From the NCBI RefSeq assembly GCF_055900595.2, contig NZ_CM148325.1: 64,000 bases of DNA; one strand, given 5' to 3'. Shown here piece after piece: positions 36,851 through 49,601 of the stretch (its first letter is position 1; each line of letters begins with the position of its first letter). The position numbers were made by a program, and so were the translations under genes. The notes beneath the pieces are model-generated. The model did not search any database and was not told the origin of the DNA. It was given only the letters and a program-made list of their open reading frames with translations.

Positions 36851-38857
36851 TTACCCTGCCTTAACCGCTTTCCCTTTCAACAACTTCCGCACCCATAACC
36901 GATTTGGATTTAACGCCGCCAGCGTATTGCTATCCATCGGAATCGGTTCGTCGCTCATCTGCGCTGCCAGAATCTCGGCACACAGCGGGGCAGAGCACAA
37001 ACCACGCGAACCTAAAGCCGCAAGCATAAAGAGATCGTCATAAACCGGTGCGCTTACCGCGTTGTCTTTCTGTTCCGCCAGAGAGGCATATTCCGCGAGC
37101 GTTGCCTCATAATCGGGGACATTGCCTACCATTGGCAGATGATCTCGGGTGGCACAACGCACACCGCAGCGCGCTTCTTTCTTACTGACATCAACCTCTT
37201 TTGCCCACTGCGCCTGCGGGAAACAATCAATCAACCGCTGGCGATTCTGCTGCTGATCTTCATCACTGTACGCCGTATCTTCGCTGCCGCGATGATAACT
37301 GGCACCAATACAATGATGTTGATTCGTCGGATTTTGTGGCGTGAGGTAACCGTCATAGCACAGCACCTGCTTCAGCTTCGCCAGTTCCGGCGTTGTTGGA
37401 ATATAGCTGACTTGACCGGCAACGGAATACATCGGCAGAGACGACGTTTGGCTGAAACCGCTGATTTGATGCCCGTTCGCCAGTACCACTACACTGTGTG
37501 TTGCTTGCTGATCTCCTGCAAAATTCAACAACCAACAGTCATCCTGACGGGATAAATCCTTTAACTGATGTTGATAACAAATCTGCAAACCCTGCTGTTG
37601 CGCCAGTTCCAGCACATTACGGGTCAGCTCTGCCGGACACAGCCAACCACCTTGCGGATAAGTAATACCGCTGCAATTTGTCGCAACGCCCGTAATTTGT
37701 TCAACCGCCTTAGCATCAACGGCTACAGCCAGTTCTGCGGGTAAATCCATCGACAGCATTTGTGCGATTTTGTGCTGACTTTTCTCATCCCAGCCTAACT
37801 GCGTGACGCCGCACCAGTCATGATCAAATTTAACAGGCAATAAATCGTAAAGCCGACGAGCAAAAGTAAACGCATTGGAGAAAAAGCGGTTCAACGCCTC
37901 ATCGTGTTTACTTAAGAGCGGATACAGCGCCCCCTGGCGATTGCCGGAAGCACCGAGCGCGGGGGCTTCATCCGCGCAATAAAGCGTTACCTGCCAGCCG
38001 CGCCGTAATAACGCCAGCGACAACAACGCGCTGGCAATACCACCGCCGATAATCGCTACTTCCCGTTTGCTGCTGCCCGTACGATTAAACCACGGCGTGG
38101 AGCAGGGGAGGGGTAATGCTTGCTCCATCACCCCACAAAGCATCTCCCGTTTACGCCCAAACCCTTTGCGCTTTTGCATGGTGAATCCGGCTTCCTGCAA
38201 ACCCCGGCGGACAAAACCGGCAGACGTAAATGTCGCCAGAGTGCCACCCGGACGCGCCAGCCTTGCCATGGCGTTAAACAGATTTTGCGTCCACATATCC
38301 GGGTTCTTCGCTGGTGCAAAGCCGTCCAGAAACCAGGCGTCTACTTTTTGATTTAGCGAATCGTCCAGTTGGCTAGTCAGTTCGTTAATATCGCCAAACC
38401 ATAAATCCAGCGTCACGCGGCCTTCATCGAGCAATAAACGATGGCAACCGGGCAAGGGCAAAGGCCACTGCGCCTGAAGTTTTTCTGCCCACGGTGCCAG
38501 TTCTGGCCAGTGTTGATGCGCTAATCCTAAATCCGCACGAGTGAGGGGAAATTTCTCAAAACTAATGAAATGTAAGCGTTGTAATTGCGCTTGCGGATGA
38601 GCTTCGCGAAACTGATCAAATGCCTGCCATAGCGTCAGGAAGTTTAATCCGGTGCCGAAGCCGCTCTCTGCTACCACAAACAGAGGATGCGGATGTTCAG
38701 GAAAGCGTGCCTCTAATTGGTTACCCCCAAGAAAAACATAGCGTGTCTCTTCCAGTCCGTTATCGTTGGAAAAATAGACATCGTCAAAATCTCGGGAAAC
38801 AGGTGTACCCTCAGCATTAAATTCGAGGTTGGCAGGTTGTATGGCGTAGTGTTTCAC
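36851..38857 (-). CDS. mnmC: Bifunctional tRNA (mnm5s2U34) methyltransferase / FAD-dependent cmnm5s2U oxidoreductase MnmC
   Basis: Likely GTG start giving (V)[18 protein letters not shown]..., 668 aa; the track ORF extends 20 codons upstream. Confidence 0.88.
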
Positions 38858-38933
38858 GTAAGTTACTCGTCTTACAGGCGGTGGCTCGATCTTAGCGATG
38901 TGTGTCAGGCTGCGCAAATTTCTCTATTAATTG

Positions 38934-38967
38934 GCTGATCGGACTTGTTCGGCGTACAAGTGTACGC
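38934..38967. promoter_or_regulatory. fabB regulatory region: FadR-like activator site plus FabR-like palindrome
   Basis: GCTGATCGGACTTGTTC (FadR-like) immediately followed by the perfect palindrome GCGTACAAGTGTACGC, about 50-80 bp upstream of the fabB ATG. Confidence 0.55.
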
Positions 38968-39015
38968 TATTGTGCATTCGAAACTTACTCTATGTGCGAC
39001 TTACAGAGGTATTGA

Positions 39016-47611: not shown

Positions 47612-47680
47612 TAACTGATAAGGGCAGGGCCACTGGCTCTGCCCTTTTGCTATTCTCACCGTAACGAATCAGCGGATACC

Positions 47681-48949
47681 ATGATTATCAAACGCACTCC
47701 TCAAGCCGCGTCGCCTCTGGCTTCGTGGCTTTCTTATCTGGAAAACCTGCACAGTAAAACTATCGATCTTGGCCTTGAGCGCGTAAGCCAGGTCGCGGCA
47801 CGTCTTGGCGTTCTGAAACCAGCGCCATTTGTGTTTACCGTTGCGGGTACGAATGGCAAAGGCACCACCTGCCGTACGCTGGAGTCGATTCTGATGGCGG
47901 CAGGGTACAGAGTGGGCGTCTACAGTTCGCCGCATCTGGTGCGTTATACCGAGCGCGTACGTGTGCAGGGCCAGGAATTGCCGGAATCGGCCCACACAGC
48001 CTCTTTTGCGGAGATTGAATCGGCACGCGGTGATATTTCCCTGACCTATTTCGAGTACGGTACGCTGTCGGCGTTGTGGCTGTTCAAACAGGCACAACTT
48101 GACGTGGTGATTCTGGAAGTAGGGCTGGGCGGACGTCTGGATGCAACCAATATTGTCGATGCTGATGTTGCGGTGGTGACCAGCATTGCGCTGGATCATA
48201 CCGACTGGTTGGGGCCAGATCGCGAAAGCATTGGTCGTGAGAAAGCAGGGATTTTCCGCAATGAAAAACCGGCAATTGTCGGAGAGCCGGAAATGCCTTC
48301 TACCATTGCTGATGTGGCGCAGGAAAAAGGTGCACTGTTACAACGTCGGGGCGTTGAGTGGAACTATTCCGTCAGCGATCATGACTGGACGTTTAGCGAT
48401 GCTCACGGCACGCTGGAAAATCTGCCGTTGCCGCTTGTCCCGCAACCGAATGCCGCAACGGCGCTGGCGGCACTGCGTGCCAGCGGGCTGGAGGTCAGTG
48501 AAAATGCCATTCGCGACGGGATTGCCAGCGCAATTTTGCCGGGACGTTTCCAGATTGTGAGCGAGTCGCCACGCGTTATTTTTGATGTCGCGCATAATCC
48601 ACATGCGGCGGAATATCTCACCGGGCGTATGAAAGCGCTACCGAAAAACGGGCGCGTGCTGGCGGTTATCGGTATGCTACATGATAAAGATATTGCCGGA
48701 ACTCTGGCCTGGTTGAAAAGCGTGGTTGATGACTGGTATTGTGCGCCACTGGAAGGGCCGCGCGGTGCCACGGCAGAACAACTGCTTGAGCATTTGGGTA
48801 ACGGCAAATCATTTGATAGCGTGGCGCAGGCATGGGATGCCGCAATGGCGGACGCTAAAGCGGAAGATACCGTGCTGGTGTGTGGTTCGTTCCACACGGT
48901 CGCACATGTCATGGAAGTGATTGACGCGAGGAGAAGCGGTGGCAAGTAA
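47681..48949 (+). CDS. folC: Dihydrofolate synthase / folylpolyglutamate synthase
   Basis: 422 aa; P-loop GTNGKGTT. Confidence 0.93.
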   Translation: MIIKRTPQAASPLASWLSYLENLHSKTIDLGLERVSQVAARLGVLKPAPFVFTVAGTNGKGTTCRTLESILMAAGYRVGVYSSPHLVRYTERVRVQGQELPESAHTASFAEIESARGDISLTYFEYGTLSALWLFKQAQLDVVILEVGLGGRLDATNIVDADVAVVTSIALDHTDWLGPDRESIGREKAGIFRNEKPAIVGEPEMPSTIADVAQEKGALLQRRGVEWNYSVSDHDWTFSDAHGTLENLPLPLVPQPNAATALAALRASGLEVSENAIRDGIASAILPGRFQIVSESPRVIFDVAHNPHAAEYLTGRMKALPKNGRVLAVIGMLHDKDIAGTLAWLKSVVDDWYCAPLEGPRGATAEQLLEHLGNGKSFDSVAQAWDAAMADAKAEDTVLVCGSFHTVAHVMEVIDARRSGGK

Positions 48950-49601
48950 GTTTCAGAATCGGTTAGTGGGTACGATCGTGCTGGTGGCGCTGGGGGTGAT
49001 TGTACTTCCAGGGTTGCTGGACGGGCAGAAAAAACATTATCAGGATGAGTTCGCGGCTATCCCGCTGGTGCCAAAAGCGGGCGATCGCGATGAGCCTGAT
49101 ATGATGCCAGCCGCCACCCAGGCGCTGCCGACGCAGCCGCCGGAAGGCGCAGCGGAAGAGGTGCGGGCAGGTGATGCCGCCGCGCCGTCGCTCGATCCGG
49201 CCACTATTGCAGCCAATAACACCGAGTTTGAACCGGAACCTGCACCGGTCGCTCCACCGAAGCCGAAACCGGTGGAACCGCCTAAACCGAAGGTTGAAGC
49301 AGCACCTGCGCCGAAGCCAGAACCGAAGCCGGTCGTGGAAGAAAAAGCCGCCCCGACGGGTAAAGCGTATGTCGTCCAGCTGGGCGCGCTGAAAAATGCC
49401 GATAAAGTGAATGAGATTGTCGGTAAGCTGCGCGGTGCCGGTTATCGGGTTTATACGTCGCCATCCACGCCGGTGCAGGGTAAAATTACCCGTATTCTGG
49501 TTGGGCCAGATGCCTCGAAAGATAAGCTGAAAGGTTCGCTGGGTGAACTCAAGCAGCTTTCTGGCTTAAGTGGCGTGGTGATGGGCTATACACCGAATTA
49601 A
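48939..49601 (+). CDS. dedD: Cell division protein DedD (SPOR domain)
   Basis: Likely GTG start (V)ASKFQNRLVGTIVLVALGV...; 220 aa; Pro-rich linker; overlaps the folC 3' end. Confidence 0.88.
   Translation: MASKFQNRLVGTIVLVALGVIVLPGLLDGQKKHYQDEFAAIPLVPKAGDRDEPDMMPAATQALPTQPPEGAAEEVRAGDAAAPSLDPATIAANNTEFEPEPAPVAPPKPKPVEPPKPKVEAAPAPKPEPKPVVEEKAAPTGKAYVVQLGALKNADKVNEIVGKLRGAGYRVYTSPSTPVQGKITRILVGPDASKDKLKGSLGELKQLSGLSGVVMGYTPN

Follow-up and report, generated by a model that had tools for sequence, protein, structure and literature searches.

A stretch of 64,000 nucleotides from contig NZ_CM148325.1 (NCBI RefSeq assembly GCF_055900595.2), hereafter the window, carries the core genes mnmC, dedD, accD, yfcF, yfcC and mlaA, in each of which the longest open reading frame (ORF) opens upstream of the annotated start codon. 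By nucleotide match, the 12.75-kb segment 36851-49601 is 100% identical to several Escherichia coli chromosomes, and essentially all of the 5,425 other E. coli genomes match it at 95-99% identity; the counterpart of the window in K-12 MG1655 lies at 2.417-2.466 Mb in reverse orientation. Coding-sequence starts were taken from K-12 RefSeq and from an identical strain annotated by the NCBI Prokaryotic Genome Annotation Pipeline (PGAP), and were placed onto the window by BLAST, giving 48 transferable genes. An overshoot was defined as an annotated start lying downstream of the first in-frame ATG, GTG or TTG (NTG below) after the upstream stop, and Shine-Dalgarno (SD) strength was expressed as a duplex energy in kcal/mol for each candidate start. 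The six genes and the extensions that the longest ORF adds to them, each beginning at the first in-frame NTG, are as follows.

15338-15379, plus strand: false mlaA extension, 14 codons from ATG 15338, in frame solely through the A8 tract 15359-15366.
15380-16135, plus strand: mlaA coding sequence, 251 aa, ATG 15380, SD GGGAG at 15369-15373 (K-12 b2346, PGAP; lipoprotein signal peptide).
36851-38857, minus strand: mnmC coding sequence, 668 aa, GTG 38857-38855 (PGAP, K-12 b2324, conservation, peptide, structures).
38858-38917, minus strand: false mnmC extension, 20 codons from TTG 38917, read here as promoter and 5' leader DNA (entropy, transcription start sites, frame breaks).
46613-46696, plus strand: false accD extension, 28 codons from ATG 46613, read here as 5' leader and promoter-proximal DNA (no SD, frame inconsistency).
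46697-47611, plus strand: accD coding sequence, 304 aa, ATG 46697 (K-12 b2316, PGAP, conservation).
48921-48938, plus strand: false dedD extension, 6 codons from TTG 48921, holding the real SD GAGGAG at 48928-48933.
48939-49601, plus strand: dedD coding sequence, 220 aa, GTG 48939 (K-12 b2314, PGAP, conservation, peptides).
60043-60210, plus strand: false yfcF extension, 56 codons from TTG 60043, in frame solely through the C7 tract 60186-60192.
60211-60855, plus strand: yfcF coding sequence, 214 aa, ATG 60211, SD GAGGA at 60202-60206 (K-12 b2301, PGAP).
62095-63615, minus strand: yfcC coding sequence, 506 aa, ATG 63615 (K-12 b2298, PGAP, peptides).
63616-63636, minus strand: false yfcC extension, 7 codons from GTG 63636, no SD (+1.6 versus -5.3 for the ATG).

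The results leave us highly confident that the curated starts are real and that the six extensions are an artefact of opening an ORF at its first NTG. For this reading, coordinates, conservation, reading frames and SD energies were computed here, while N-termini and transcription start sites (TSSs) were taken from the literature. The experimental data come from K-12, not from the window strain, and should carry over given nearly identical start regions: K-12 MG1655 b2324, b2314, b2316, b2301, b2298 and b2346 have the same start codon, position and length (668, 220, 304, 214, 506 and 251 aa, respectively), their start regions are identical to those of the window or differ by 1-3 single-nucleotide polymorphisms, and the proteins differ by few amino-acid substitutions, such as S5A in MnmC.

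The longest-ORF start was too early in 10 of the 48 genes, by 1-56 codons. The affected genes are the six above (mnmC by 20, dedD by 6, accD by 28, yfcF by 56, yfcC by 7 and mlaA by 14 codons) together with yfcZ (8), fadL (2), aroC (1) and yfcE (1). When each 300-nt upstream region was shuffled, ~24 of the 48 genes were expected by chance to have an NTG in frame before a stop is reached, and the 10 observed are fewer. Overshoot follows mechanically from the way the longest-ORF rule works and occurs below chance frequency. GTG starts were found in five of the 48 genes (mnmC 38857, dedD 48939, prmB 31993, pdxB 42772 and hisM 55462). The original prediction had proposed GTG starts for mnmC and dedD, and both coordinates proved exact and agree with PGAP and K-12 RefSeq; all six overshoots that it named are likewise present when the longest ORFs are aligned with these curated starts. 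Its gene list was correct for those six but incomplete, three more GTG starts and four more overshoots being present, and the segment to which it was assigned, 36851-49601, holds mnmC, accD and dedD, whereas yfcF, yfcC and mlaA lie outside.

Published N-terminomics bears directly on these starts. The TRAINSPOTTER study (PMC13245402), carried out in a K-12 derivative, combined deformylation-assisted N-terminomics with a six-frame NTG search database and was therefore able to reveal extensions; it reported 688 dbTISs (TIS, translation initiation site), of which 50 were GTG and 10 TTG, and 17 upstream alternative starts (uTISs). The GTG frequency in the window, 5 of 48, is close to the 9% in that dataset. 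In its Table S1, mnmC, dedD and pdxB are GTG dbTISs with Met-initiated peptides; the TISs given there for mnmC, dedD, yfcC and pdxB are the annotated ones only, and the six-frame search produced no uTIS entry for any of mnmC, dedD and yfcC. Hence, in published K-12 data, the annotated starts of mnmC, dedD and yfcC are detected and longer N-termini are not. INRI-seq supplements contained no rows for the six genes.

For mnmC, accD and dedD, the starts were also compared across species in 80 Enterobacteriaceae loci from species-representative genomes, obtained by a scan centred on pdxB, most of which hold all three starts. GTG stands at the mnmC start in 66 of 66 species. The N-terminus MKHYSIQ... 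was found from this GTG in K-12 (PMC13245402 Table S1), the MnmC constructs in PDB entries 3awi, 3ps9 and 2qy6 start at annotated residue 1, and a Flag-tagged 668-aa MnmC has been expressed and purified in a study that does not discuss the MnmC start codon (PMC3936742). The 688-residue length of 3awi_A had been considered as support for the long ORF and was rejected, the extra 20 residues being a His tag. In the cross-species alignment, third-position periodicity sets in at precisely the annotated first codon of mnmC and of dedD, with none further upstream. Column entropy at codon positions 1, 2 and 3 is 0.42, 0.85 and 0.53 in the mnmC extension versus 0.14, 0.13 and 0.66 inside the gene, so that the second codon position is the most variable upstream, where conservation is block-wise. 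In addition, the upstream frame is broken by an in-frame TAG after the TTG in locus L076 and by a 1-nt indel in L066. The conserved blocks suggest a promoter of mnmC, beyond which lies the divergent promoter of fabB.

38889-38917, minus strand: putative mnmC sigma-70 promoter, -35 TTGCGC at 38917-38912, 17-nt spacer, -10 TAAGAT at 38894-38889 (conserved blocks in 62 distinct sequences).
38956-38968, plus strand: predicted FabR core motif ACAAGTGTACGCT of the divergent fabB promoter (exact match to ACAnnTGTnnnnT of PMC4804515).

The two mnmC hexamers match the sigma-70 consensus at only 3/6 and 4/6 positions and a consensus promoter scan of 38780-39080 called no promoter, so the assignment rests on conservation and on published TSSs. 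From the conserved hexamers, a TSS was predicted at about -25 before TSS data were consulted. SMRT-Cappable-seq (PMC6131387, coordinates of NC_000913.3) places the TSSs of b2324 at 2441738 and 2441741, i.e. -26 and -23 from the GTG (window ~38883 and ~38880), 6-9 nt after TAAGAT; the supplement text of the 2016 Cappable-seq study (PMC4782308) has no entries for the mnmC region. The proposed -35 hexamer has TTG 38917 as its first three bases; this codon precedes the mapped TSSs by 34-37 nt and is therefore absent from the mnmC mRNA. The resulting leader of ~23-26 nt has a predicted RNA fold no more stable than that of shuffled sequences (z = 0.35), and no structural element is proposed for this reason. 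At 38851-38869 (minus strand), the 12 nt before the GTG, CGAGTAACTTAC, and the first 7 nt of the gene, GTGAAAC, are invariant at all positions but one in 62 distinct Enterobacteriaceae sequences, and this block holds no AGG or GGA Shine-Dalgarno motif. Beyond the -35 hexamer, 38918-38977 (-120 to -61 from the mnmC GTG) is highly conserved across genera. The site through which FadR activates the fabB promoter is adjacent. The fabB TSS maps to K-12 position 2441641 (PMC6131387), or window ~38980, ahead of the fabB ATG at 39016. With a conserved fabB operator block further upstream, the mnmC extension would be untranscribed DNA between two divergent promoters. On this reading, mnmC initiates at GTG 38857 on a short, unstructured and SD-poor leader, the upstream TTG being untranscribed and inside the gene's own putative -35 element. 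An open and positionally conserved upstream frame can thus be promoter DNA, and codon-position periodicity combined with TSS data separates the two readings.

The dedD GTG is found in 70 of 70 species, and the DedD peptides MASKFQNR and ASKFQNR start from it, with further support from Ribo-RET, INRI and REPARATION (PMC13245402 Table S1). The start overlaps the 3' end of folC (47681-48949) by 11 nt, and this overlap makes folC-dedD translational coupling likely. A GAGGAG or GGGGAG SD, 5 nt before the GTG, is conserved across species and sits in the last folC codons; the SD duplex at the GTG has an energy of -8.9, versus -3.3 at TTG 48921. In 46 of the 70 species no in-frame start exists upstream of the GTG. 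Initiation of dedD takes place at GTG 48939, directed by a strong GAGGAG SD within the end of folC.

ATG stands at the accD start in all 75 species compared, and the AccD structure 2f9y_B starts with MSWIERIK (construct/model N-terminus). No usable report of direct AccD N-terminal sequencing was found in a literature search. The N-terminus of the beta subunit was reportedly sequenced by Li and Cronan in 1992, which is not used as evidence here. The upstream ATG 46613 has no SD (+0.9 kcal/mol), and 24 of 75 species have no in-frame start upstream of the accD ATG. ATG 46613 lies within a conserved element at 46590-46625, TTTAATGTGCAACATTCATGGTCTG, that many genera retain without retaining its frame with respect to accD: the leader motif TTTAAT...cattcATGGtctg stands at a variable distance from the true ATG, with differences that are often not multiples of three, and in other genera the conserved cATGg motif is found 21-29 codons from the accD start, out of frame, or before a TAG or TAA. 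In many Citrobacter an in-frame TAG comes after the leader motif, and Kosakonia carries a deletion of it; Klebsiella and Raoultella have a TAA shortly behind it, and the ATG that is in frame there is a different one. A motif of such inconsistent frame behaves as promoter and leader DNA, and TTTAATGTGCAACATTCATGGTCTG is presumably a promoter or initial-transcribed-region signal. Transcription of accD starts at -46 (~46651) and -88 (~46609) (PMC6131387); the -46 TSS leaves out ATG 46613, and the -88 TSS gives it a 4-nt leader. Our model is that accD initiates at ATG 46697, with the upstream ATG belonging to a conserved motif of the promoter or close to the TSS.

For yfcC, the peptides MSAITESKPTRR, carrying N-formylmethionine (fMet) at the annotated ATG, and SAITESKPTR have been detected (PMC13245402 Table S1). 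Only 9 nt separate GTG 63636 from the mapped 5' end (TSS at -30, PMC6131387), and yfcC initiates at ATG 63615.

The yfcF and mlaA extensions depend on homopolymer length. The yfcF extension covers the whole divergent yfcG-yfcF intergenic region plus 31 nt of yfcG antisense, and it is in frame through C7; K-12 has C5, six in-frame stops and no upstream start, and the nearest relative, strain E600003, differs in its intergenic region by C8 alone and likewise lacks an upstream yfcF start. Similarly, the window has A8 before mlaA, whereas K-12 has A7, an in-frame stop and no upstream start. In an evenly spaced genome sample, 12 of 12 other full-length E. coli records (an identical record apart) were 2 nt shorter than the window upstream of yfcF, and 12 of 12 were 1 nt shorter upstream of mlaA. 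The extensions therefore exist because rare tract lengths, C7 and A8, put upstream NTGs in frame. On the protein side, the YfcF structure 3bby starts at the annotated Met (construct/model N-terminus). The MlaA N-terminus from ATG 15380, MKLRLSALALGTTLLVGC, has the canonical form of a lipoprotein signal peptide, with Cys18 in the lipobox LVGC, and the mature MlaA chains 8i8r_D and 5nuq_G start at this Cys18, which would be residue 32 of the long ORF. Initiation at the SD-preceded ATGs would explain both genes, with the extensions being length-variable tracts in non-coding DNA of this lineage.

The poly-C length at 60186-60192 varies among very close relatives, which may reflect real hypervariability or homopolymer sequencing error. 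That C7 and A8 are sequencing or assembly errors rather than real alleles is a thought encouraged by the dependence of both extensions on run length, by the single C8-to-C7 difference between E600003 and the window and by the shorter runs of nearly all other genomes. However, 281-nt segments identical to those of the window recur in independent assemblies (for yfcF in NZ_AP027764.1, for mlaA in NZ_CP075472.1) and homopolymer tracts also vary naturally, and we consider such an error unlikely. Whether error or allele, the conclusion that the yfcF and mlaA extensions are non-coding is unchanged. Next to mlaA, an ORF for a 399-aa 'hypothetical protein' without a Pfam match (16315-17514, minus strand) occupies the K-12 yfdF position between mlaA and fadL.

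Several observations weigh against the curated starts as the only sites of initiation. That proteomics shows no extended peptide does not prove that there is none, and PMC13245402 Table S1 holds no N-terminal peptide for accD, yfcF or mlaA, so that the case for these three rests on comparative and structural arguments. Inspection of ribosome-binding sites favoured the annotated start in dedD, accD, yfcF, yfcC and mlaA but was undecisive for mnmC, where the SD energies do not discriminate (-2.6 versus -2.9 kcal/mol). The mnmC upstream frame is open with a TTG kept at -20 codons in 64 of 66 species, which alone could suggest coding. Finally, ATG 46613 is present in the -88 accD transcript and in dedA read-through transcripts, where low-level use is possible. 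Still, we regard it as very unlikely that AccD is made at a low level in a near-leaderless, 28-residue-extended form from ATG 46613, or that CGAGTAACTTAC-GTGAAAC at the mnmC start is a dedicated translational control element.

Minor N-terminally extended proteoforms of AccD from ATG 46613, DedD from TTG 48921 and YfcC from GTG 63636 are a related proposal that we judge highly improbable. Mapped transcripts include all three codons, E. coli does use alternative starts upstream of annotated ones (17 uTISs in PMC13245402, aroC of the window included), and ATG 46613 has the near-leaderless geometry of a codon 4 nt from a transcript 5' end; but the six-frame search gave no uTIS for dedD or yfcC, the SD is absent or weak at each codon (+0.9 for accD, -3.3 for dedD and +1.6 kcal/mol for yfcC), and the dedD and accD extensions are not conserved, as the 46 of 70 and 24 of 75 species without an upstream start indicate. 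That the 60 nt upstream of mnmC encode a real extension from TTG 38917 and hence a 688-aa protein is scarcely credible, for the fixed spacing of that TTG and its open frame are countered by blocks that fit a -35, 17-nt and -10 arrangement with the second codon position most variable, by TSSs downstream of the TTG, by the broken frames of L076 and L066, by the detected N-terminus MKHYS... and by the 668-aa form of the enzyme that was crystallised (3awi, 3ps9; 2qy6 being the N-terminal domain alone) and purified.

The curated starts thus hold for the six genes, and the earlier view that the accD, yfcF, yfcC and mlaA extensions are unlikely to be translated is borne out by frame inconsistency, homopolymer alleles and the yfcC fMet peptide at the ATG. 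Used raw, the longest-ORF track gets roughly a fifth of the starts here wrong and puts false N-terminal residues on MnmC, DedD, AccD, YfcF, YfcC and MlaA; in the predicted MlaA precursor it moves the cysteine of the lipobox from position 18 to position 32, and it creates a false overlap of yfcF with yfcG. The correct starts are already present in RefSeq and EcoCyc, with support from N-terminomics and TSS maps in the literature, so that the matter is a known annotation caveat and not new biology.

The assumption that a longer call is a wrong call holds for the six genes named but fails for the one-codon cases aroC and yfcE. For aroC, peptides from both GTG 32957 (a uTIS) and the annotated ATG 32960 have been found (PMC13245402 Table S1), and its longest-ORF call is partly right. 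For yfcE, K-12 RefSeq starts at GTG 60908 (555 nt, VMKLMF...) and the related-strain PGAP annotation at ATG 60911 (552 nt), with similar SD energies (-7.7 versus -8.4). Both genes share the one-codon GTG-ATG geometry of closely spaced uTISs, both N-termini being detected for aroC. By contrast, the six flagged extensions span 6-56 codons and lack SD, proteomic or conservation support. Another GTG-initiated gene has a K-12 peptide of its own.

42772-43908, plus strand: pdxB, GTG start, Met peptide from the GTG in PMC13245402 Table S1.

Elsewhere, the window is not colinear with strain E600003 outside 28-60 kb, owing to indels and a different left-end island. In the yfcU-homologue region, a 1-nt indel separates the two; the yfc fimbrial usher gene there (yfcU homologue, 25401-28036) has an internal stop and a pseudogene annotation in both K-12 and the related strain. 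Positions 1-14100 form a genomic island beside a tRNA-Arg gene (argW) that is full-length in 147 of 5,426 E. coli genomes. It is found neither in K-12, where CPS-53 takes its place, nor in the otherwise identical E600003, which has evgAS/emrKY/dsdA/csc there. Its genes include the Shango anti-phage system and a frameshifted IS3 transposase.

321-1886: ORF of SngA (TerB, cut by the window edge), Shango system.
1890-3206: SngB, Shango system.
3203-5401: SngC, Shango system.
5883-6899: protein without a family match.
7543-9903: HsdR_N-domain protein.
12637-13854, minus strand: integrase.

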